From NCBI GenBank assembly GCA_002422865.1, contig DITN01000094.1, positions 12,661 to 76,660 on the forward strand: 64,000 bases of DNA. Reading direction: 5' to 3'. Below the pieces are notes generated by a model that worked only from the letters and a program-made list of their open reading frames with translations, did no database searches and had not been told where the DNA came from. The DNA is from Bacteroidetes bacterium UBA6183. Its GTDB lineage: Bacteria; Bacteroidota; Bacteroidia; UKL13-3. This document shows, piece by piece, positions 9,817-25,597 of the stretch (within the stretch, counting starts at the first letter, position 1; each line of letters opens with the position of its first letter). The translations under genes were made by a program, and so were the position numbers.

Positions 9817-11340
9817 CTAGGCTGCAATGTTTAATTCAGTCTGGTTATTTTCCTCGTTAAGGAAATAATTAAACCTTTTTGAAGAAAATTCAATTGATGC
9901 AGGGTCTACATCATATCCAACAACGTTTCTTCCCATTGTTAAACCTATTCCAACTGTACCTGAGCCAACAAAGGCATCAAGTAAAGTATCACCCGGATTT
10001 GAATATGCTTTTATGAATTTTTCGTAGGTTTTAGTACATGCTGGTGCATCGTGTCTAAAATCGGGGTCTATCATTTTGAACTCATTTTTATTAAACGCTG
10101 GTGTTTTTATAACATTAGTAAGATGTTTTACATCATTACCCTTATAATATTTACGCTGTCCGTTTTTCTTTCTTTTTGACTTTTTTAATCCAATTACTTT
10201 GTCTGAATCATCATCTTCATCCTCAACCAAGTTAAATGTCATTTCACCCCCGGGTTTACTCACCACAATTGCCACCTCGTAAGCAGGTTGAAATCTGTTT
10301 TTAAGATCCTGTGGTACTGGGTTTTCCTTGGCTAAAATATTCATATCTACACCAATCCATCCGTCTTCAATCAACGCAGTCATTAACCTTGGACAAATAG
10401 CGTTGTAGCCACCTAAATATGATTCACCAATGATTATCACATTCATACCACCCGGTTTTAGTTTAGTTTTTATTCCACGGTTAAATTTAATCTGATTTTC
10501 TATGTATTCTGAAACAGTTTTTTCTTTACCGTGTTTCATATCATCCTGATTCGGATAATTCCTTTGATTGAAATAGGGTGGGCTTTGAATAGCCATGTCA
10601 ATTGATTCGTCTTCTAAGTCACTGAGGTCAAGTGATGACTTATTGAATAGTTTATACCTAGTTGTTTGAGTGTTGATTAAACCGCCCAAAACCCTCTGTT
10701 TAGCTTGTTCTTTAGAGTGACTTAATTTATACATCTCAAATACTTTGTAAGCACCATGCGGTGAAGTTTCCCCCTTGTCTAATTGATCTATTAAATCCAA
10801 TTTAACCTGTTCGGGTAGATAGGTTTCATCTTCAAAAATTGTCATTATTTTTCTAAGTGTTTTCGAACCGTAATCACAATCTACTTGTATTGTTGCCCAT
10901 TCCATTCTTTCTTTTTTAATACCCTCTGGAAATTCGACTTCATCCCATTCGGTTCTTTTTTTTCCGCGCTGTCTTCCTAACGGATAAAGTATGTGGTTTA
11001 GTTGATTGTAAATTTCAGACCATGTTCTTTTGGTGTTTGTGTTGTTGATAATATGGTCATCTACGATTTCAACGTTTTCGCTTAAATCAATAATCTCACA
11101 GTCCAGTTCGTTGAACTCTTCTGGGTTTTCCTTATTCAATTCCTTTGCAGCAATCAATCTTTTTACACCATCAACAATGAGATAGGCATCATCTCCATTG
11201 TTAACTACTTTGATGCAGTTACGCTGTCCTTTCGTTTTTAAACTGAACTTCATTTTGTTACATAAACGTGGTTCTGACACCTTTTTTACTCCTTGATGAA
11301 CTCCAAGTTGATCAAGAGTGATTCTTTTAATTTTTAACAT
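9817..11340 (-). CDS. ParB-like nuclease domain fused to an N6-adenine/N4-cytosine DNA methyltransferase (beta-class, orphan MTase)
   Basis: 507 aa. The N-terminal 'LIVDGVKRLIAAKEL' is a ParB motif. Motif IV is 'SPPY' (QSPPYFNQ) and the AdoMet motif I 'LLDAFVGSGTVGIG' lies C-terminal to it. Confidence 0.75.
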   Translation of the reverse strand: MLKIKRITLDQLGVHQGVKKVSEPRLCNKMKFSLKTKGQRNCIKVVNNGDDAYLIVDGVKRLIAAKELNKENPEEFNELDCEIIDLSENVEIVDDHIINNTNTKRTWSEIYNQLNHILYPLGRQRGKKRTEWDEVEFPEGIKKERMEWATIQVDCDYGSKTLRKIMTIFEDETYLPEQVKLDLIDQLDKGETSPHGAYKVFEMYKLSHSKEQAKQRVLGGLINTQTTRYKLFNKSSLDLSDLEDESIDMAIQSPPYFNQRNYPNQDDMKHGKEKTVSEYIENQIKFNRGIKTKLKPGGMNVIIIGESYLGGYNAICPRLMTALIEDGWIGVDMNILAKENPVPQDLKNRFQPAYEVAIVVSKPGGEMTFNLVEDEDDDSDKVIGLKKSKRKKNGQRKYYKGNDVKHLTNVIKTPAFNKNEFKMIDPDFRHDAPACTKTYEKFIKAYSNPGDTLLDAFVGSGTVGIGLTMGRNVVGYDVDPASIEFSSKRFNYFLNEENNQTELNIAA

Positions 11341-14020: not shown

Positions 14021-14207
14021 AACTTTCGGTAAAAAGAGGGAAAGTTACTCTCCAACACTAACAGTAGTTTATGTTTCACTTTGTACAAAAGTGAAACATG
14101 ATGCATAAGGCGTTGATTGCATTGCTCTTATTTTTACCTCAAAAAATTCATGTTTTATTTATGTGTTTTTTCATTGCTTTTTGAAACTTTATCTGGAGCA
14201 TAGCACC

Positions 14208-14789
14208 ATGAAAAAGAAAAATACAACAACAACTTATTTGGAATGGGACAAGGTTTCATTTTTAATTAAAAAACTTGAGAAGGAAAAAGATTACAAATTT
14301 ATGCTACTTGTTTCTATTGGATGTTTCTTGGGATTGAGGATTTCAGATATTAAACAATTGAGGTGGGTCGACTTGTATCAAAATGACAACCTTTCAATAA
14401 TAGAAAAGAAAACGGGTAAGACTAGGAAGCTTATCATCAACGATGATCTGAAGAATATTATTAACATTGCACACCAGAATCTGTGTGTTAATCAGGAGGA
14501 ATTAATTTTTCAAAACAGATTTGGCAAAGGTGCAATAAGTACCCAATACATAAACAGAAAATTGAAGGAGATATTCAATAGGTACTCGTTAAGAATCCAA
14601 GCCTCATCACATACACTAAGAAAATCGTTTGGTAGAAAGGTGTATCAGAATCATAATCAATCTGAACATTCACTTGTATTACTGATGAATATCTTCAATC
14701 ATTCAAGTATTCAAATAACCAGACTCTATCTCGGTTTACGTCAAGAAGAAATAAACAATGTATATGAGGGAATTGAACTCTACAATTGA
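14208..14789 (+). CDS. Minimal tyrosine recombinase (catalytic domain only, ~194 aa; the ORF extends upstream to 14163)
   Basis: 'GLRISDIKQLRW' (Arg I), 'HTLRKSFGRKVY' (His-x-x-Arg) and 'HSSIQITRLYL' (His/Tyr). Confidence 0.65.
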   Translation: MKKKNTTTTYLEWDKVSFLIKKLEKEKDYKFMLLVSIGCFLGLRISDIKQLRWVDLYQNDNLSIIEKKTGKTRKLIINDDLKNIINIAHQNLCVNQEELIFQNRFGKGAISTQYINRKLKEIFNRYSLRIQASSHTLRKSFGRKVYQNHNQSEHSLVLLMNIFNHSSIQITRLYLGLRQEEINNVYEGIELYN

Positions 14790-14941: not shown

Positions 14942-17900
14942 TTATTCTTCTGCTGCTATCGAATATGAATCTTCGTTGGTTTCGTAAAGTTTACTACTAA
15001 AGTCGTTTGCTAGTAGTTTTGCTTGTTCTATTACTGTTTCTGTGGCCTTAGTTTCTAAATCTGGTGGGTAACCATGTTTGCGTAAAATCCTTTTTACCGC
15101 AATTCTCATTTTGGCTTGAATCGTTTCTCTCACAGTCCAATCAATGTTGGTATTTCTTTTTACTGTATCAACCAACTCACGTGCAATGTGTCGTAAAATT
15201 TCATCACCCAACACTGCAACAGACGAATCATTTACTTCAAGTGCAGTATAAAAAGCATACTCCCTAAAATCCAATCCCATGTCTTCACCTCGTCTGTCGG
15301 CCTCCTTAATATCCTTGGCCAATCGAATCATTTCTTCGATAATTTGAGCGGAAGTAATTAGGTTGTTTTGGTATGATTTCATTGATTTCTCCAACATCTC
15401 AGAGAACTTTTTTGATTGAACTAAGTTTACCTTTTGTCTGGTTTTGATTTCATCGTTTAGAAGTTTTTTTAGTAACTCCAAAGCCAGATTTCTATGGGTC
15501 ATTCCTTTCACCTCAGCTAAAAATTCATCAGAGAGAATGGAAATATCCGGTTTTTTAATTCCGGCAGCATCAAAAATATCAATCACCTCATCGGCAACAA
15601 CAGCATCAGACAAAATCTGTTTGATGGCTGTTTCTATTTCTTCATCTGTTTTTCCTTTACCACTTTGGGTTACTTTTACAATACGTGTTTTGATTGCTTG
15701 AAACAATCCAACAGTCTCTCTTATATCAGTAGTATAAGGGTGAGGTACAGAAATAGCAAAAGCCTTTGTTAATGCTGTTACAGCAGTAACGAATCTATTT
15801 TTACCGTTTTCTAATCCTAAAATATAGTTGGCTCCTTGTATTGGGAAGTATAATTTCTCTTTGGGTGTTTTACCAAAAAACGATTTGTAATCAAATCCTT
15901 TTGGTGCTGTATTATCAAGTGGTTGTTCGTTAAACATATTACACACCACTTCAAATTTACCCATCATTACTTCGGCAGCTTCATCTTGGTCGATAGTTGG
16001 TTTTCCTTTACCACCACTTTCGGTATATAATGATAACGCCTTCTTTAAATCGTTTGCTATACCAATGTAATCTACCACCAAACCACCATCCTTATCTTTA
16101 TAAACCCTATTAACCCTTGCAATGGCTTGCATCAGGTTATGACCTTTCATCGGTTTATCAATGTAAAGTGTGTGCATGGATGGTGCATCAAACCCAGTTA
16201 ACCACATATCTCTTACTATGGCAAGTTTTAATGGGTCTTTAGGGTCTTTTAATCGTTCACCTAGTGCTTTACGTTTAGCCTTGTTTCTAACGTGAGATTG
16301 AAAGTTTAATGGGTCGGATGATGAACCTGTCATTACCACTTTTACTGTACCTTCATTATCATCATTGCTGTGCCACTCCGGTTTTATCTTTATGATTTCA
16401 TTGTAGAGGTCAACACATATTCTACGACTCATGCACACAATCATTGCTTTACCATCCAACACAGCATTACGTGATTCAAAGTGTTGAACAATATCTTTTG
16501 CAATTAATTTAAGTCTGTGTTCATTACCTACAATGGCTTCCAACCTTGCCCATTTAGATTTTAAACTTTGTCTTGAATTTAATTCTTCACCCTCGGTTAA
16601 TTCTTCAAACTCTTCATCAACTCTTGGTTTTTCATCTTCCAATAAGTCAATTTTTGCTAGTCTGTTTTCATAAAATATCCTAACCGTTGCACCATCTTCT
16701 ACCGCTTGCTGTATGTCGTACACATCAATGTAATCACCAAAAACGGCTTGGGTATTCTTATCCGTATTTTCAATGGGTGTTCCGGTAAAACCTATAAAGG
16801 AAGCATTGGGTAAAGCATCCCTCATGTGTTTGGCAAAACCATCCATAAAGTCATACTGACTGCGGTGTGCTTCATCTGCAATAACAACTATGTTTCTTCT
16901 TTCTGATAATAGTTCAAATTGTCCTTTTATGTTTTTAAACTTACCATCTCCAATCTCAATTTTCTCTTGTATTTCGGGTAAGAATTTTTGGATGGTAGTA
17001 AATACAATACCACCCGAACTTACACTAAGTTTCTTTTTAAGGTCGTCTCTGTTTTCTGCTTGTACAGGTGTTTGTCTGAGTATATCCTGACTTAAAGAGA
17101 ACGTATCAAATAACTGGTCATCTAAGTCGTTTCTATCAGTTAAAACAATAAGTGTTGGGTTGTTTAATGCTAGTACCAATTTACCTGCATAAAACACCAT
17201 ACTTAAACTTTTACCACTACCCTGTGTGTGCCAAATTACACCGGCTCTTTGGTCACCATTTTCTGCTGTTGCTCGTTTGGTGGTTTCTACTGCTTTGTTT
17301 ACCGCAAAGTACTGATGGTAACGAGGTACAATTTTGGTTATCTGTTCTTTGTTTAGATGAAATAGAATGTAATGTCTAATTAGGTCGGGTAATACCCTTT
17401 TATTGAGCATACCCTTAACCATTACCTCCATTTGTGGTATGTCTTCATCTGCAACAAATTTTCCATCAATTGATTTCCACGGAACAAAAAATTGTTTAGG
17501 TGCTGTTAAAGAACCATACAGTGCATCCCAACCATCAGACACAATTAATAGTGAGTTATAGGTAAACAGAGATGAAATGGTTTGTTTATAGGTTTGTAGT
17601 TGGTTAAACGCTGAGTTAATGGTTGCGTTTTCATCAACAGCGTTTTTAAGTTCAATTACAACCAACGGAAGTCCATTAACAAACAAAATTAAATCGGGGC
17701 GTTTATTAATGTTGTTTTCAATAATTGTAAATTGATTTACTACCAAAAACTCGTTGTTATCAGGGTTGGAAAAGTCTATTAACCATACCTTGTCACCAAC
17801 AATTCTACCACCTTTTCGGTATTCAATATCTACACCCTCGGTAAGGTATTTGTGGAAGGTGTAATTGTTTTGAAATAAGTTGGGACTATCTGTACGTAAA

Positions 17901-18157
17901 ACCTTCTTCAGCGCTTCTTCCTGTGCTTCTCCGGGGACGGTTGGATTCAGTCTGGAAATGGTATCTCTCAATCTTTGTTTAAGAACCACCTCATCAAACT
18001 CACGTTCTTGTGCAACACCATCTGGTGAAATATCTGCACCGTTAACGTATGAGTATCCAAGGTCTATAAACTCTTGGATAATGATTTGTTCTATATTGTT
18101 TTCAGATAGTATGGCGGCCATGGTTATGGGTTTATATTTCTGATACCTCCAACTCAC
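14942..18157 (-). CDS. hsdR: Type I restriction enzyme R subunit (HsdR); the likely true start is the internal Met at ~18121
   Basis: 1071 aa. Helicase motifs 'HTQGSGKS' (Walker A) and '[10 protein letters not shown]' (DEAH). Confidence 0.9.
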
Positions 18158-19358
18158 CGGAAATGAGTTTTGGTAAAAGGGTGTCTCGGAGTTGTGTTAG
18201 TTGCTGGTTTTGGTTTGTGAAATTATAGATTAACGAGTCTTTCTCTTTTACCAACTCATCAAAACCGTTTGAGGTGGAAAAAGGAGGTATGATTGTTTTA
18301 ATGTTGCCTAAAGTTTCTTTATTTATTGAACCGAAGACAGTACCTTCGTTATCATAAGATTTCAATTCTCCCTGAATAGATAGCATTTTGTAATAAGTGT
18401 ATGAAAACAACTTTCTTGGATGTGAAATTGAACCAAGGCCCCGGCCAATACAACAATCATGTTCAGCCATATTAATATCCCCAACGGGAGCTCTTACACT
18501 AATTAACGTCTCGAACTTCTTAGCAACCTTTTTTGGGTCATTTGTATACATTCGTACTGAAGGATACCTAAAACCAAAGTCCGAACGTCCCTGAAAGAAT
18601 ATCATTCCATCTCCTGTTTCATTGTATGTGTCTCCTTTTGGAGATTGACCCATATTAAGGTTGAATTCATCTTTTAAAGTTCCAACTACCCAATCCTTTG
18701 GAATCTCACCCAACTCACTATCCTTCATTTCACCACCGGAAGATTTGTAGGGTTCACCATTTTCATTAGGAAACTCAAAATCAATAAACCAACGTTTAAA
18801 TAAGGTTTGTGCAAGGTTTTCTAACTCCTGATTGATTTTGTTGTTGAGTTCTATTTTATCATCAAGTGAGGAGAGGATTTCAGCAATGGCGGTTTGGGTT
18901 GGGAGGTCGGGGAGATTGAATTTTAAATTCTTTACAACCGATGCAGATATTTCAGCAAAAGTTGTTCCTGTACCATAGGACTTGATGTACTCCATTTTTG
19001 CTTTTAGCAAATAGTAAACAAAGTTATAATCAGCTTTTTCTGGATTAACTACAATACTTTTAAAACCCTGGTTAGTGCATACTTCATTAGCAGCAATAGC
19101 CAAATATCCTATAGGTGCTCTGGATGTTAATAGGATAGTATTCTTCGGAACCATCCTTGAAGAAGAATTTGATAAACCTTCTATTGTTATGTTTCTCTCA
19201 CCATTTGCAATGTGCCTATTTGTGTAATTGGTCAAGTCTTTTGGTGTTAGCCAAGGAATGTTACCACCGTAAAAATGTGGCACTTTTGTTGAAGGTGTAC
19301 CACCACCAACAACATCAGCAATTTCTTCTATTTTATATTCTTTCCAAATAGCCATCAT
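18132..19358 (-). CDS. hsdS: Type I R-M specificity subunit (HsdS), two target-recognition domains
   Basis: 408 aa. Conserved central '[16 protein letters not shown]' and C-terminal '[14 protein letters not shown]' repeat regions. Confidence 0.85.
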
Positions 19359-19831
19359 GCTTCAGTTTCGTAGTTTAAATAATAATCAACATTAAAATAT
19401 CCGTTCTCAAGTTCAACCACACCGCCTAATGCATATTTATATTGATTATCTTCAGTTTGACTTATAAAGTCTATTATTTTTTTATGGTCATTCTCTCTAT
19501 TTGCTTTATTCCAATAGCCTTTAAATTCAAGCACTAAAATATTTTCTTCATTAGAATTTCTTCTGTGTAACAAAACATCTGGAATAACACCACCGGAAAA
19601 GTTTTTTGTATTCTTAGGCTTACCCAAATTGCGATTGTACTCACAATCTAAATTGTAGCCGCTGAAAGAACTTTTTGATAACAACTCCGCGAAATAAAGC
19701 CCGAAACGAAAAACTACACTTCTTTCATTTACGGCAAACTCTATTAATTCCTGGTCTTGTTGATAAAGGCTTTGTAATGCTTCATCAACTATACCTTTCA
19801 GCTCTTTTATATGTGCAGTTGATAGTTTCAC
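19355..19831 (-). CDS. Hypothetical protein with PD-(D/E)xK (Mrr-cat/restriction-endonuclease-like) motif, embedded in the type I R-M operon
   Basis: 158 aa. 'GGVIPDVLLHRR...(19 aa)...ILVLEFKGYW', preceded by a helix carrying Glu ('AVNERSVVFRFG'). Its stop overlaps the hsdS start (ATGA). Confidence 0.5.
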   Translation of the reverse strand: MKLSTAHIKELKGIVDEALQSLYQQDQELIEFAVNERSVVFRFGLYFAELLSKSSFSGYNLDCEYNRNLGKPKNTKNFSGGVIPDVLLHRRNSNEENILVLEFKGYWNKANRENDHKKIIDFISQTEDNQYKYALGGVVELENGYFNVDYYLNYETEA

Positions 19832-19841
19832 TTATTTGCTC

Positions 19842-21080
19842 TTATTCTTCGTTTAATTCTACAAAAGACACTAGAATGTCTTCAATCTTTGGTTTTTTAT
19901 TACCGGCTTGTTTTGTTTCTCTACGTTCAATAACCACATCATAAGTTTTATCAAAATGAATAAGGTATGACATTTCTAGACGTGCTTTATCCATTTTGCC
20001 TTTTGATGTGTTGTCTTTATCTTCAATATCTTCAAACTCGTAATAACCTGTCTTAACGTTTAAGGCAATAAAGCGACCTGTAATTTTGATGTCTGTTTTT
20101 TCATCATACTCCAATTTTTCAAGCACACTTAAAATCTCATTGGCCTTGTCAAAATTTAAGTCTTTACGGTCAGACACTTTAGTGACAGCGTTTTCGTACC
20201 GAATGTAAAATTTGAGTTTTGATCCAATAATGGTTTGTAGCAAACCTTTGTAACTAGTAATTATCTTTTTATCAATAGACTTGACAAATTCTGCAAGTTG
20301 CTCATATTTTTCAGAGGCACTGATAAAGTTCATCACAAATTGGATAAACATGTCTTCATCTGACGGTACGCCTTCCATTGGAACAGCTGCCGATGCTGGC
20401 TTAAATAATGCACTAAAAGAGCCTCCTGCTTGTGCAAAATAGTTTATCTGTGTACTATGTTTTAGTGCGGCCCTGTCAATATTTGGTTTATTATTCTTGT
20501 CCTTTGGTGCTGTTCTTATTCTTTGCTTAATAAATGCTTTGCCTAAGCCTGATGTAATCTCGTGTAAGCTATTCATTGCAGGGCCGAAAATGTCAATATC
20601 TATTTCATTATACGGAACTTTGGAAGAGTTTTTGAAATAGGTTTGAAGTATGCCTGTATTGTACTTCAAAGAATAATTTGTTAAATCTAAATCATCTGAA
20701 AGAGGGTCAAAAGTGTATTTAGTGTTTCTGTCCGGCAAATAAGATTGAGGTATTTGATCTGGAAATATCATTAAAATATTTTGATAATTCAGGTCAACAT
20801 CAATATCAACTTTATAAACAAAGTTGTCGTTTGGCTCTGTTATGATGTTATAGAATGTCAGCTTTCCGTTCAAATATGCTTGAAGCCTTTCTATCGAAAC
20901 CCTTACTACCAACCAACGATTGAATGTATCATCTACATCTGCCCAAAAAAACAAATAATTTTCGTTGTTGCCCGATCGAAAATGTGACAACAAAGGACCA
21001 TCATAATAAATGAGGTCGCTTACTTTTTGCAAGTCCTTTATGGGAAGCCTTTCCAGTAATATGCCGTTAATTGCTTCCAT
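19842..21080 (-). CDS. Hypothetical protein (412 aa) embedded in the type I R-M operon; no recognisable motifs
   Basis: Long ORF. Its start overlaps the stop of the upstream ORF (21080) and there is a 10-nt gap to the downstream ORF. Confidence 0.55.
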   Translation of the reverse strand: MEAINGILLERLPIKDLQKVSDLIYYDGPLLSHFRSGNNENYLFFWADVDDTFNRWLVVRVSIERLQAYLNGKLTFYNIITEPNDNFVYKVDIDVDLNYQNILMIFPDQIPQSYLPDRNTKYTFDPLSDDLDLTNYSLKYNTGILQTYFKNSSKVPYNEIDIDIFGPAMNSLHEITSGLGKAFIKQRIRTAPKDKNNKPNIDRAALKHSTQINYFAQAGGSFSALFKPASAAVPMEGVPSDEDMFIQFVMNFISASEKYEQLAEFVKSIDKKIITSYKGLLQTIIGSKLKFYIRYENAVTKVSDRKDLNFDKANEILSVLEKLEYDEKTDIKITGRFIALNVKTGYYEFEDIEDKDNTSKGKMDKARLEMSYLIHFDKTYDVVIERRETKQAGNKKPKIEDILVSFVELNEE

Positions 21081-21520
21081 CAGATTAATTTTTCAATTGG
21101 TATGAATTTGTTGGATAGGTTACAACTTTCAAATTCAAACAAGTCAAAGTGAGTGTGTTTGCCTTCTTCTGTAATCAAACCATCATTGCCATCAATTAAG
21201 CCTGTACTTAGTGTTTCACCAACCGCTTTGTAAAATTTAGGGATGTGTTTACTGTGTTCTAAAAAAAATTGTTTTGCACTATCTGGTCTTTTAAAGCAAG
21301 AAAGGCCATACAATGAACATTTTTTTTGATCCTTCTCATTTAATACTCTTTGAGGATTATTTGCACCAGGGGGCTTGTGGTTTTTTATATGATAAGGATC
21401 TTCAAACACAAAACGAAATGTTTGCAGATTATTAGGCACTATTAATTCATCAGGAGGGCAGCAGATACCCATCTGTTGAATTTTTTCAATTTCTCGTTTA
21501 TATTTTAATTTTTCGGTCAT
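21080..21520 (-). CDS. Hypothetical protein (146 aa) embedded in the type I R-M operon
   Basis: Its start overlaps the hsdM stop (ATGA at 21517-21520). It contains an A8 run in the coding sequence (21313-21320). Confidence 0.5.
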
Positions 21521-23025
21521 ATCTCAATCCCCACTTTTTTAAGGTTCTCTTTAATACGTTTCTGTAATTCTACTGATTCAGTAAAATGTAATTTCAGGTT
21601 GGTTGTTATCCCTTGTATTTTTTCCTCAAAGGAAACTCCATCGTCTTCTACATCTTCAGTACCTACATAACGTCCGGGTGTTAAAACAAAATTATTATCT
21701 TCAATATCCTTTAGTGTGGCCGATTTACAAAAACCTTGTATGTCTTCATATCCTCCATCTTTACTTCTCCACTTGTGGTATACTTCAGCAATTTTGCTTA
21801 TGTCATCATCGGTAAAGGCTTTGTTTTTTCTACTCACCAATGTACCAAATTTACGTGCATCAATAAATAGTATTTCGTTCTTACGTTTACGGTATTTACC
21901 ATTGGTTTTATTACGTGCCAAAAACCATAAACAAGCAGGTATTTGGGTATTAAAAAACAACTGTGTAGGTAGTGCAACCATACAATCAACCACACCATCC
22001 AAAATCATGTTTTTCCTAATCTCATTTTCTCCACCAGAGTTTGAGGTCATAGAACCATTGGCCAACACAATACCTGCAACACCACTAGGACTAAGTTTAT
22101 TTAAAACCAATTGTAACCAAGCATAGTTGGCGTTTCCGGCAGGTGGTACACCATATTTCCATAAGTGTGAATCCTGTAATGACTCGGCACCATAATCAGA
22201 AATATTGAAAGGGGGATTCATGATGGCGTAATCCACCTGAATGTCTTTGTGTCTATCGTTGTGTAAGGTATCGCCTAATTCAATTTTGGCATCAATACCC
22301 CTGATGGCTAGGTTCATTTTGGCTAGCTTGTAGGTGGTTGGGTTACTCTCTTGTCCATATACCGCTATATCCCCAATTTTACCTCCGTGAGCTTCCAAAA
22401 ATTTCTCACTTTGAACGAACATACCTCCAGACCCACAGCAGCCGTCATAGATACGGCCATTGTATGGTTCTAACATTTCAACTAGGAGTTTAACAATACT
22501 GTCTGGAGTATAAAATTGTCCGCCACGTTTACCTTCAGCATCAGCAAACATTCCTAAGAAATACTCGTACACTCTTCCCAACAGGTCTTTACTATTCTGA
22601 CCGGGTTCATTGAAACCAATGTTTCCAATTAGGTCAATTAACTCACCCAAACGTTTTTTATCAAGTGCCGGTCGAGCATAATCTTTTGGTAAAACACCTT
22701 TCAAATTGGGATTGTCCTTTTCAATGGCATCCATTGCATCGTCAATATCTTTACCAATGGTAGGGAGTTTGGCTCTTTCGTATTGAAGGTATTCCCAACG
22801 TGCAATGGTGGGTACGAAGAACACATTCTCTGCTAGGTATTCGTCCTTATCTTCCGGGTTTGATAGTGGGTCACTACTTAACTTGGTATGTAGTTCTTTA
22901 AAACTATCTGATATGTATTTCAAGAAAATCAATCCAAGTACTATGTGTTTGTACTCGGCAGCATCCATGTTATTACGTAATTTATCTGCTGTAGCCCAAA
23001 GGGTCTTTTCTAAATCTTTTACCAT
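21517..23025 (-). CDS. hsdM: Type I R-M N6-adenine DNA methyltransferase subunit (HsdM)
   Basis: 502 aa. Motif I '[11 protein letters not shown]' and motif IV 'NPPFN'. Confidence 0.9.
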
Positions 23026-23279: not shown

Positions 23280-23720
23280 ATGACACACAAAAAAACAATA
23301 GGATTGAAAATTTACCCGGTATCAACCGAAACGGAGTTGGATTTACAACTCATCGAAGGAGGGGTGTCAGCCGGATTCCCTTCACCTGCTAGTGATTTCT
23401 TAGATCAGGCAATTGACTTGAACAAACACCTTATAAAGAACCCATCAACTACATTTATTGCTGTAACTGATGGTAACTCCATGAAGGATGCAGGGATTAC
23501 GGATAAGGACTTATTGATTATTGACAAATCATTAAGACCAACTAACGGTAAAATTGCGGTATGTATTATTGATGGAGAATTTACGTTAAAACGACTGAAA
23601 GTAACCAGAGAGGGTATTTGGTTAGTTCCGGCTAACAATGAGTTTAAACCGACTAAAATTACCGAATTTAACGATTTTTCGATATGGGGTATAGTTACCT
23701 ATTCTATTCAAAAACACTAA
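23280..23720 (+). CDS. umuD: UmuD-like S24 peptidase (LexA/UmuD family)
   Basis: 146 aa. Ser nucleophile in 'DGNSM' and Lys in 'FTLKRLK'. Confidence 0.8.
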   Translation: MTHKKTIGLKIYPVSTETELDLQLIEGGVSAGFPSPASDFLDQAIDLNKHLIKNPSTTFIAVTDGNSMKDAGITDKDLLIIDKSLRPTNGKIAVCIIDGEFTLKRLKVTREGIWLVPANNEFKPTKITEFNDFSIWGIVTYSIQKH

Positions 23721-23723
23721 ACC

Positions 23724-24986
23724 ATGTTTGCACTAGTTGACTGCAATAATTTCTATGCATCTTGTGAAAGGGTTTTTCAACCAAAACTCAGGAACAAACC
23801 TATTGTTGTTCTATCAAACAATGATGGGTGCGTAATTGCACGAAGTAATGAGGCTAAGAAATTGGGTGTTCCAATGGGTGCAGTAGCGTTCGAATACAAG
23901 GAATTATTTGAAAAGAATAATATTCATGTTTTCTCAAGTAACTACGCGCTTTATGGTGATATGAGTAATAGGGTTATGACTTTGTTATCAGAATTTTCAC
24001 CTGATGTTGAAGTTTACAGTATTGATGAAGCTTTCTTAAAGCTTGAAGGGTTTGAAAAATATTTCGATTTCAACGAGTATGGTAAACAAATGAGGGAAAC
24101 TGTCACCACCGGAACAGGTATACCCATAAGTGTTGGTATTGCACCAACAAAATCATTGGCCAAGGTGGCCAATAAAATTGCCAAGAAATTTCCTGAACGT
24201 ACCGAAAATGTGTATGTGATGGATACTGAGGAAAAACGAATTAAGGCACTGAAATGGTTACCCGTGGAAGATGTATGGGGAGTTGGACGACAGCACAAAA
24301 TTAGACTGGAAAAATTGGGAGTAAAAACTGCTTATGATTTCACCTGTCAAACGGAAGAATGGGTAAAGAAAAACATGAGTGTGGTCGGTTTGAGGTTACA
24401 CAAAGAACTTAATGGTGAATCTTGTCTGGATATTGATATTCCTAGTGACAAGAAGAATATTGCAACAACAAGAAGTTTTGATTCAACCCACGAGGATATA
24501 GAATACCTGAAAGAAAGAGTAGTTACCTACGCCACCATTTGTGCAAAAAAGTTACGAAAACAAGGTTCGTGTGCAAACTCACTGATGGTGTTTGCACATA
24601 CCAATCGTTTCAGAGATGACTTACCTCAATACTCCAAAAGTTGTGTTATTAAACTACCATTCCCAACCAACTCAGATATAGAGATTGCAAGGTTTGCAGT
24701 ACAAGCCCTTGAGAAAATTTATAAGAAGGGTTATCAGTATAAAAAGGCGGGTGTAATTCTGATGGACTTTACCCCGGAGAGTAATATCCAAATTAATATG
24801 TTTGAAAACAGTAACCCAAAACATAAAATTGCAATGGGTGTACTTGATAAAATAAACGATGGTATTGGTAAGGTTACTGTTAAACTAGGTTCTCAGGATA
24901 AAGACCGAACTTGGAAAATGAGACAAGAGAAACTATCACCAAGGTACACCACCAGAATTAATGAACTTATAAAAATCAGATCATAA
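23724..24986 (+). CDS. umuC: Y-family translesion DNA polymerase (UmuC / Pol V catalytic subunit)
   Basis: 420 aa. N-terminal 'MFALVDCNNFYASCERVFQPKL...VVLSNNDGCVIARS' is typical of the UmuC/DinB family. It lies 3 nt after umuD. Confidence 0.85.
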   Translation: MFALVDCNNFYASCERVFQPKLRNKPIVVLSNNDGCVIARSNEAKKLGVPMGAVAFEYKELFEKNNIHVFSSNYALYGDMSNRVMTLLSEFSPDVEVYSIDEAFLKLEGFEKYFDFNEYGKQMRETVTTGTGIPISVGIAPTKSLAKVANKIAKKFPERTENVYVMDTEEKRIKALKWLPVEDVWGVGRQHKIRLEKLGVKTAYDFTCQTEEWVKKNMSVVGLRLHKELNGESCLDIDIPSDKKNIATTRSFDSTHEDIEYLKERVVTYATICAKKLRKQGSCANSLMVFAHTNRFRDDLPQYSKSCVIKLPFPTNSDIEIARFAVQALEKIYKKGYQYKKAGVILMDFTPESNIQINMFENSNPKHKIAMGVLDKINDGIGKVTVKLGSQDKDRTWKMRQEKLSPRYTTRINELIKIRS

Positions 24987-25597
24987 TGTGTTTTCATTCC
25001 AGACAAATTTCTAAACCGGAAACTCTCGAGCAACGTTTCGATGCCAAGTTCACCGAAAGCAACTACGAGGGTAAAGACAGGTTTATTGGTTTTTCATACC
25101 CACAAACCCCAGTAATCACCAATGTAAACGAACATACAATTGATTTATACCATTGGGGGTTGATTCCTTTCTGGGCCAAGGATGACAGTATCAGAAAAAA
25201 CACCTTGAATGCTAGAATTGAAACTCTGAGTGAAAAACCATCATTTAGGAATAGTATAAAAAACCGTTGTTTGATTTTGGTTGATGGATTTTACGAGTGG
25301 CAGTGGAAAGACCCGAAGGGAAAGGAAAAACAACAATACCTTATTACACTTGACAAGGACGAACCTTTTGCGTTTGCAGGTATATACTCAGATTGGGTTA
25401 ATAAGGAAACTGGTGAGGTCATAAAAACCTATTCAATCATCACAACTGAGGCCAATGAGTTAATGGCAGAGATACACAACAATAAAAAACGTATGCCTGT
25501 AATACTTACACCGGAAAACGAAAAGTTGTGGTTACACGGCACCGATGTAAATGAGTTTTTCAAACCTCAAGTTGATTTGAAGGCGTATGCGATTTAG
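24986..25597 (+). CDS. SOS response-associated peptidase (SRAP/YedK/HMCES family; abasic-site DNA-protein crosslink enzyme)
   Basis: 203 aa. It begins 'MC' (catalytic Cys2), with 'HWGLIPFWAKD' and 'RMPVIL' signature motifs. Its start overlaps the umuC stop. Confidence 0.75.
   Translation: MCFHSRQISKPETLEQRFDAKFTESNYEGKDRFIGFSYPQTPVITNVNEHTIDLYHWGLIPFWAKDDSIRKNTLNARIETLSEKPSFRNSIKNRCLILVDGFYEWQWKDPKGKEKQQYLITLDKDEPFAFAGIYSDWVNKETGEVIKTYSIITTEANELMAEIHNNKKRMPVILTPENEKLWLHGTDVNEFFKPQVDLKAYAI

Follow-up and report, generated by a model that had tools for sequence, protein, structure and literature searches.

The 64,000-nucleotide stretch analysed here (the window), from contig DITN01000094.1 of Bacteroidetes bacterium UBA6183, carries a type I restriction-modification (R-M) operon in which three open reading frames (ORFs), ORF146, ORF412 and ORF158, are embedded between hsdM and hsdS. 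We propose that these constitute two independent defence cargo modules: a pair of the PD-T4-10 family (ORF146 and ORF412, its A and B proteins) and a solo PD-(D/E)xK nuclease (ORF158) related to component A of PD-lambda-3. Judged from sequence comparison, we give this reading a probability of roughly 0.7. Vassallo et al. recovered both reference systems by functional selection, and both were validated by experiment in E. coli (PMC9519451). A first-pass annotation of the window had put the three genes forward as a single candidate undescribed module in which no protein bore a motif assignable to a known system. Their embedding in an R-M operon and their defence-type character stand. The novelty and the unity do not: PADLOC profiles match all three proteins, with PD-T4-10 and PD-lambda-3 as the systems concerned, and the pair and ORF158 each occur without the other.

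The three genes are two separable add-ons and not one three-gene system. All three genes together are seen only at this locus (L001 is the identical contig) and in its close relatives L002–L005 and L018, at 75–95% identity, such that the co-occurrence elsewhere which had been suggested as a check holds within this narrow clade and fails outside it. The order hsdM-ORF146-ORF412-ORF158-hsdS-hsdR and its tight spacing are retained in the differing flanks of L002–L005 and L018, as would be expected if the genes formed one obligate three-component system, new as a unit, but the closeness of these relatives and the behaviour of the genes beyond them make that interpretation very improbable. In every other context examined the pair occurs without ORF158: at hsdM/hsdS junctions (L009–L012, L080), at an hsdS/hsdR junction with a YhcG nuclease at the hsdM/hsdS junction (L083–L085), with type III R-M genes and a Schlafen-like gene as neighbours (L081), within the capsule-biosynthesis loci of abundant gut bacteria (L013–L017) and on an Oscillatoria plasmid. 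Defence neighbours of the pair include type III R-M, SLFN_AlbA_2 and KAP NTPase genes. To sample the contexts of the pair we used the ORF412 family to collect 80 metagenome loci, and not one of the 80 contains an ORF158 relative. An A-like ORF directly precedes, overlapping or abutting, a B-like ORF in 75 of them (and also in L009–L017 and L077–L085), the five exceptions being three loci at contig ends and two ORFs consisting of the N-terminal domain only. In 9 of the 80, genes of a type I R-M system could be detected in the vicinity, leaving about 70 outside such operons. Conversely, no pair accompanies the ORF158 relatives of L006–L008, and of 56 genome loci with such a relative 55 lack the pair, the exception being L018. 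Divergence between related operons is also mosaic. Compared with L002, ORF146 is 70% and the adjacent ORF412 92% identical at the protein level, while compared with L018 the values are 81% for hsdM and 90–95% for the three-gene cassette. This suggests recombination between operons with independent exchange of the modules. L018 is labelled as a Methylophilus metagenome-assembled genome, which looks mis-binned given the low guanine-plus-cytosine (GC) content and the type IX secretion system-type neighbours of the window's contig.

ORF146 matches the PADLOC profile PD-T4-10_A over its full length (2.2e-28; residues 4–143 on profile positions 11–145 of 148), and hhalign relates its family to the canonical A protein of L077, which itself scores 3e-36 on the same profile, with 99.4% probability across 133 columns. 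The match of ORF412 to PD-T4-10_B (3.4e-33) is confined to residues 1–133, on positions 1–132 of 353, and alignment of its family to canonical B with hhalign extends only over residues 1–127. The canonical B of L077 covers positions 1–348 of that profile (1.2e-79), whereas in ORF412, its L009 relative (47% identity) and its L013 gut relative (28%) only the first ~130 positions are matched. This segment contains a DUF6575 domain (2.8e-11, residues 26–118), the only family from Pfam, NCBIfam or PHROGs detected in ORF412, in which D22, G28-P-L-L-S-H33, W46, D48, N54-R-W56, P111, Y114, P116 and Y122 are invariant. On the strength of these alignments ORF412 is a predicted domain-swapped variant of PD-T4-10B. 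Its 88 full-length homologues are 398–416 residues long. When the family profile was searched against 1.84 billion representatives, 2718 clusters at 50% identity were obtained, 307 of them at E <= 1e-30. Full-length proteins of 400–450 residues are numerous among the clusters, and others combine the N-terminal domain with different C-termini to give lengths of ~330–385 and ~457–472 residues.

The remaining 280 residues of ORF412 comprise a basic helical/beta middle region followed by a five-stranded barrel, which can be superposed on SSB or PriB in an AlphaFold2 model with a mean predicted local distance difference test score (pLDDT) of 86. This barrel is a probable oligonucleotide/oligosaccharide-binding (OB) fold, and from the pattern of strands and helices we place it at approximately residues 325–408. 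Foldseek comparison of the model with the PDB returned only non-significant OB-fold matches, and none for the N-terminal or middle domains; PDB profile searches with four alignments of the inserted proteins gave no credible match. The absence of a P-loop from ORF412, remarked on at first reading, is borne out by the lack of a Walker A motif and of any NTPase family match. No ORF412 homologue was found in phage records at E <= 1e-3.

Two groups of ORF412 relatives deserve separate mention. In the gut relative of L013 (7001–8215, +), residues 176–395 match the PADLOC candidate PDC-M63B (2e-8), a profile that ORF412 itself does not reach; a non-canonical C-terminal module has therefore already been listed independently as a defence candidate. 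Elsewhere, ORFs of 140–167 residues consist of the DUF6575 N-terminal domain alone (L074, 6001–6423, +, on a contig shared with L155; L075 and L157 have comparable ORFs). These are located on viral contigs (IMG/VR) and on one metagenome contig, have no A-like gene upstream, and are 52% identical to residues 1–119 of ORF412 (PADLOC PD-T4-10_B, 2.9e-33). In L074 two further ORFs follow it, one DNA methyltransferase-like and the other large and SbcC/AAA-like. Such an N-domain-only ORF could represent what is left of a gene, or else a decoy, borne by phages, that mimics the constant domain of the toxin. The canonical PD-T4-10 pair was also seen on a small viral contig (L077, 5581–6996, +, and L078), with an A protein of 136 and a B protein of 331 residues. 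One ORF of the L077 contig looks Zot-like by its translation alone, and the contig may be a filamentous phage, in which case PD-T4-10 would be carried by phages themselves.

Across 45 diverse members of the ORF146 family, R36, P56, L73, S74 and H124 are invariant, and R58, D113, G114 and E129 nearly so. The protein had been described as Cys/His-rich, which is nominally correct (5 Cys and 6 His in 146 residues), but no Cys is invariant in these members and H124 is the only invariant His. We rejected a zinc site, since C20, C21, C68, C75 and C133 are not kept in the gut, canonical and cyanobacterial members. The AlphaFold model of ORF146 is weak (pLDDT 61, predicted template modelling score 0.61), its quality probably limited by an input of 15 sequences. 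This low-confidence model resembles proteins with the ADP-ribosyltransferase (ART) fold, and R36, S74 and E129 each fall in a predicted strand (32–38, 70–76 and 124–130), which is the arrangement of the R-S-E triad of ARTs. An ART fold is thus possible for ORF146. We treat it as a weak lead and not as a finding because sequence-profile methods give no support: fifteen diverse members have no Pfam match at E <= 10, whether to ART, RES or Tpt1 families or to any other, a profile of 45 sequences has no sequence match in the PDB, and ORF146 itself matches nothing in Pfam, NCBIfam or PHROGs.

Were the lead to hold, a more elaborate reading could be framed, which we regard as speculative and rather unlikely: that PD-T4-10A-type antitoxins are ART enzymes that catalytically restrain a DUF6575 toxin and, separately, that ORF158-type proteins are a fourth component of some type I R-M systems. 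The antitoxin's active site would then be formed by R36, S74 and E129 together with H124, and A would ADP-ribosylate B, or tie the state of B to NAD+, instead of simply binding it. The pair would constitute a type-VII-like toxin-antitoxin system with an ART as the antidote, in which DUF6575 would be the conserved receiver and the exchangeable C-terminal modules (here the SSB-like OB-fold) would determine what the system senses or attacks.

Turning to the second module, ORF158 matches the PADLOC profile PD-Lambda-3_A at 1.4e-20 and, weakly, that of SduA/DUF4263, the Shedu nuclease domain (0.0046). In 24 homologues E36, D62, P84-D85, H89, R91 and E102-F-K104 are invariant. These residues would give ORF158 a textbook PD..ExK core, in agreement with the PD-(D/E)xK-like core picked out by the first-pass annotation (E36, D85 and E102-x-K104). 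There is no sequence match to Pfam, NCBIfam, PHROGs or the PDB, the family is not in Pfam, and phage records yielded one unannotated match. PD-lambda-3, from E. coli ECOR28, is a three-gene abortive system comprising a small PD-(D/E)xK-like protein (A), a protein with AbiJ_NTD3 and Ymh/TIGR02391 HEPN domains (B) and a protein with a restriction endonuclease-like N-terminus and a beta-propeller (C) (PMC9519451). We recovered the canonical operon on the E. coli IncHI1B plasmid p22Q34-1, where it lies beside BREX, and compared its products with the whole window using tblastn. The A protein finds 19475–19831 (1.9e-19, 35% identity), which is ORF158; the B protein finds no homologue (best E-value 0.19) and the C protein no match at E <= 10. 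Of the three components, A is present in the window and B and C are not, and neither partner was found beside the ORF158 relatives examined.

ORF158 relatives were found in the genomes of 56 species, covering Bacteroidota, Bacillota, Alphaproteobacteria, Elusimicrobia, Gastranaerophilales and methanogens. An hsdS gene adjoins them in 17 of 54 analysable genome loci (position +1 in 13, −1 in 3 and +2 in 1), and the junctions with hsdS overlap or abut in the arrangements inspected. Other co-embedded genes differ by locus (PIN, HTH-M78, GmrSD_N, RhuM, DUF6119, AAA_13) while ORF158 keeps its place beside hsdS, and in L063 nothing but the relative separates hsdM from hsdS, its ends overlapping each of them. 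These observations, which recur in Bacteroidota, Gastranaerophilales, Elusimicrobia, Bacillota and others, would also suit a functional accessory of the type I enzyme, that is, an extra nuclease or regulatory subunit acting with HsdS or HsdM2S. Against this, approximately two thirds of the family lie outside detected type I R-M operons, most type I R-M systems have no such gene, and the homologue that has been studied acts in a three-gene system which is not R-M (PMC9519451). We therefore consider an accessory role unlikely and prefer a solo nuclease module. Related type I operons carry other inserts of small nuclease type: a YhcG/DUF1016 PD-(D/E)xK gene at the hsdM/hsdS junction of L083 (3219–4295, +) and a DUF4268 gene just after hsdR in L004 (12913–14022) and L083 (10459–11385, +). 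It appears that type I R-M operons repeatedly take small nucleases on as passengers.

PD-T4-10, from E. coli ECOR65, consists of two overlapping ORFs without recognisable domains; B is toxic, A neutralises B and cannot be deleted, and the system protects strongly against T-even phages through abortive infection (PMC9519451; the abortive mode is also given in PMC13190303). Beyond the original screen we found no literature on its mechanism or on DUF6575. By analogy with this homologue, ORF146 and ORF412 would form a toxin-antitoxin-like abortive-infection pair with ORF146 as antitoxin and ORF412 as toxin. In the uninfected cell A would neutralise B; infection would lift the neutralisation, and B would then arrest or kill the cell before phage release. 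A may act through the DUF6575 domain, because it co-occurs with every B variant and DUF6575 is the only part these have in common. The swappable C-terminal module, here an OB-fold that possibly binds nucleic acid, would represent a variable sensor or effector end which sets the target or trigger. We envisage the pair as a second line behind the type I enzyme, following the logic of EcoprrI/PrrC. The modified DNA of T-even phages escapes classical restriction, and because PD-T4-10 counters these phages such an arrangement would be sensible. Any functional dependence of the pair on the R-M enzyme is unlikely, however, because about 70 of the 80 loci are outside type I R-M operons. ORF158 would act as a self-contained small nuclease effector, habitually encoded beside hsdS and translated in tandem with HsdS.

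Several points weigh against two defence modules acting in this way. The toxicity of PD-T4-10B is known from a protein that shares 133 of 412 residues with ORF412, and the OB-like segment of ORF412 has a pI of 5.1, which does not favour nucleic-acid binding. The PD-(D/E)xK fold of ORF158 is predicted from its motif, the PADLOC match and the published HHpred result for PD-lambda-3A (~90% probability to PD-(D/E)xK; PMC9519451), and activity of PD-lambda-3A is known only from the three-gene system. ORF158 relatives away from hsdS share no constant partner, and genes unrelated to defence are frequent around them, many of the relatives being found amid amidohydrolase, beta-lactamase, LytTR two-component system, DinB and SbcC genes. 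Because so many have such neighbourhoods, a non-defence role for the family is possible. The context statistics were obtained with single-sequence phmmer searches, by which divergent hsd genes may be under-counted.

It is also conceivable that what is embedded here persists selfishly in a mobile R-M island, as elements for addiction or stabilisation of no anti-phage benefit to the host. The relatives of the pair act as a toxin-antitoxin system in E. coli, the operon adjoins an integrase and other mobile-element genes, and the pair is carried in capsule loci and on plasmids as well. We nevertheless hold this to be improbable given the strong defence that the E. coli family member provides against T-even phages (PMC9519451) and the repeated embedding of the genes in R-M operons and defence neighbourhoods. 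The latter fits the pattern of the "guilt-by-embedding" survey of defence genes within R-M operons by Payne et al. 2024, from which the HEC/PDC candidates derive (bioRxiv 10.1101/2024.01.29.577857).

The operon that hosts the two modules is intact by domain content: Pfam finds complete sets in HsdM, in HsdS with its two target-recognition domains and in HsdR with its nuclease, superfamily 2 motor and C-terminal domain. Six minus-strand genes had been reported by the first-pass annotation, and the ORF listing and junction sequences reproduce their positions and overlaps (Table 1). The hsdM/ORF146 and ORF158/hsdS junctions are both ATGA, with 4-nt overlaps; the ORF146/ORF412 junction is TGATG, with one A in common (a 1-nt overlap at 21080); and ORF412 and ORF158 are separated by 10 nt. 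The gene caller places the start of hsdR at 18121 on the identical contig, which gives 1059 residues and a spacing from hsdS of ~10 nt in place of the overlap seen with the longest ORF.

Table 1. Coordinates of the R-M operon, its embedded genes and the domains of ORF412 within the window.
Feature	Position	Strand	Description
hsdM	21517..23025	-	502 aa, type I R-M methyltransferase subunit, first in operon; Pfam N6_Mtase 6e-107, HsdM_N 6.5e-25
ORF146	21080..21520	-	146 aa, PD-T4-10A-like; putative antitoxin of embedded pair
ORF412	19842..21080	-	412 aa, DUF6575 protein; putative toxin/effector, predicted domain-swapped PD-T4-10B variant
ORF412 N-terminal DUF6575 domain	20682..21080	-	aa 1-133; sole part in common with canonical PD-T4-10B
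ORF412 C-terminal beta-barrel	19857..20108	-	~aa 325-408; probable OB-fold
ORF158	19355..19831	-	158 aa, GTG start; predicted small PD-(D/E)xK protein, relative of PD-lambda-3 component A
hsdS	18132..19358	-	408 aa, specificity subunit; Pfam Methylase_S 1.1e-46, two stretches
hsdR	14942..18157	-	longest ORF 1071 aa; Pfam HSDR_N, SWI2_SNF2, ResIII, T1R_D3-like, T1RH-like_C

The inserted ORFs are real genes under purifying selection, not chance ORFs. Full-length homologues exist for all three (88, 24 and 15 clusters, the 88 being those of ORF412), and the ratios of nonsynonymous to synonymous substitution rates relative to three related loci are 0.10–0.17 for ORF146, 0.05–0.06 for ORF412 and 0.16–0.20 for ORF158. 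A terminator scan detected no minus-strand terminator-like sites within the operon, and promoter-like matches were as frequent as in shuffled sequence, in a scan that does not cover Bacteroidota promoters; the embedded genes are apparently co-transcribed with the hsd genes. The GC content of the cassette is 33–34% and that of the hsd genes 36–40%, a difference too small to argue for recent import.

Upstream of hsdM in the close relatives L002 (4589–4804) and L004 (4611–4805, +), a gene for an Xre-type helix-turn-helix protein of 64–71 residues, possibly a controller protein, abuts the hsdM start. The window copy is without it and has a 254-nt intergenic region that faces umuD. Divergent from hsdM (23280–25597, +) are umuD-like (Peptidase_S24, 146 aa), umuC/DinB-like (IMS, 420 aa) and SRAP/YedK-like (203 aa) genes. 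The related operon of L009 likewise has a SRAP gene at its flank, and an ORF158 relative in L048 has a DinB-like neighbour. A short ORF of the phage integrase family lies directly downstream of hsdR (14163–14789, +), with an integrase at the equivalent site in L004, and a 507-aa orphan N6_N4 DNA methyltransferase is encoded at ~9817–11340 (-) according to gene calls on the identical contig. Because of the integrase ORF and the nearby orphan methyltransferase, the operon may sit on an integrative element.

That defence genes come to be embedded in type I R-M operons is already well documented, and to this extent the finding is ordinary for a defence island. What is new is the predicted domain-swapped B protein and the solo form of a component that had been known solely as one part of a system of three genes. 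PD-T4-10-type systems would accordingly be modular, combining a constant A protein and a constant DUF6575 domain with at least three different C-terminal modules, and B proteins of the ORF412 type are widespread, their clusters at 50% identity numbering in the hundreds. Annotation tools that filter on coverage may miss such B proteins, because only a third of the profile is matched. The pair behaves as a mobile cassette that has repeatedly entered type I R-M operons without depending on them, while the PD-lambda-3A-like small nuclease exists independently and has a strong, cross-phylum link to hsdS. The tentative ART fold of the A protein could open up the mechanism of a whole defence family.

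Compared with canonical PD-T4-10, the window pair has a full-length homologue of the ~140-aa A protein, an A gene immediately upstream of and overlapping the B gene, and a B protein that opens, as the canonical one does, with a DUF6575 domain bearing DGPLLS(H/E) and NRW motifs. A full-length counterpart of canonical B is not present. Canonical B proteins are ~330–370 residues long with a C-terminal part unrelated to that of ORF412, the matches ending at about residue 130, whereas ORF412-type proteins have 400–450 residues, another middle region and an OB-fold end; the window pair also differs in its setting, embedded as it is in a type I R-M operon within a Bacteroidota-like genome. In the ART-fold toxin-antitoxin systems Xre-RES, MbcTA, ParST and DarTG the ART protein is the toxin, whereas the PD-T4-10 A protein has the part of antitoxin; the likeness of ORF146 to these families comes from its low-confidence model and has no counterpart in sequence profiles. 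ORF158 resembles PD-lambda-3 component A, a homologue of ~159 residues with a PD-(D/E)xK core, but is coupled to hsdS and has neither the HEPN (B) nor the beta-propeller (C) partner. In its layout the locus recalls PrrC/EcoprrI, RloC and Abi genes, which are likewise placed among the hsd genes and expressed together with these, with R-M as the first line and an abortive second line. The window proteins are unrelated to PrrC by sequence or fold and have no ABC ATPase or anticodon-nuclease domain, and whereas PrrC is confined almost entirely to type I R-M and is regulated by the R-M protein, pairs of the ORF146/ORF412 type are mostly found outside R-M.

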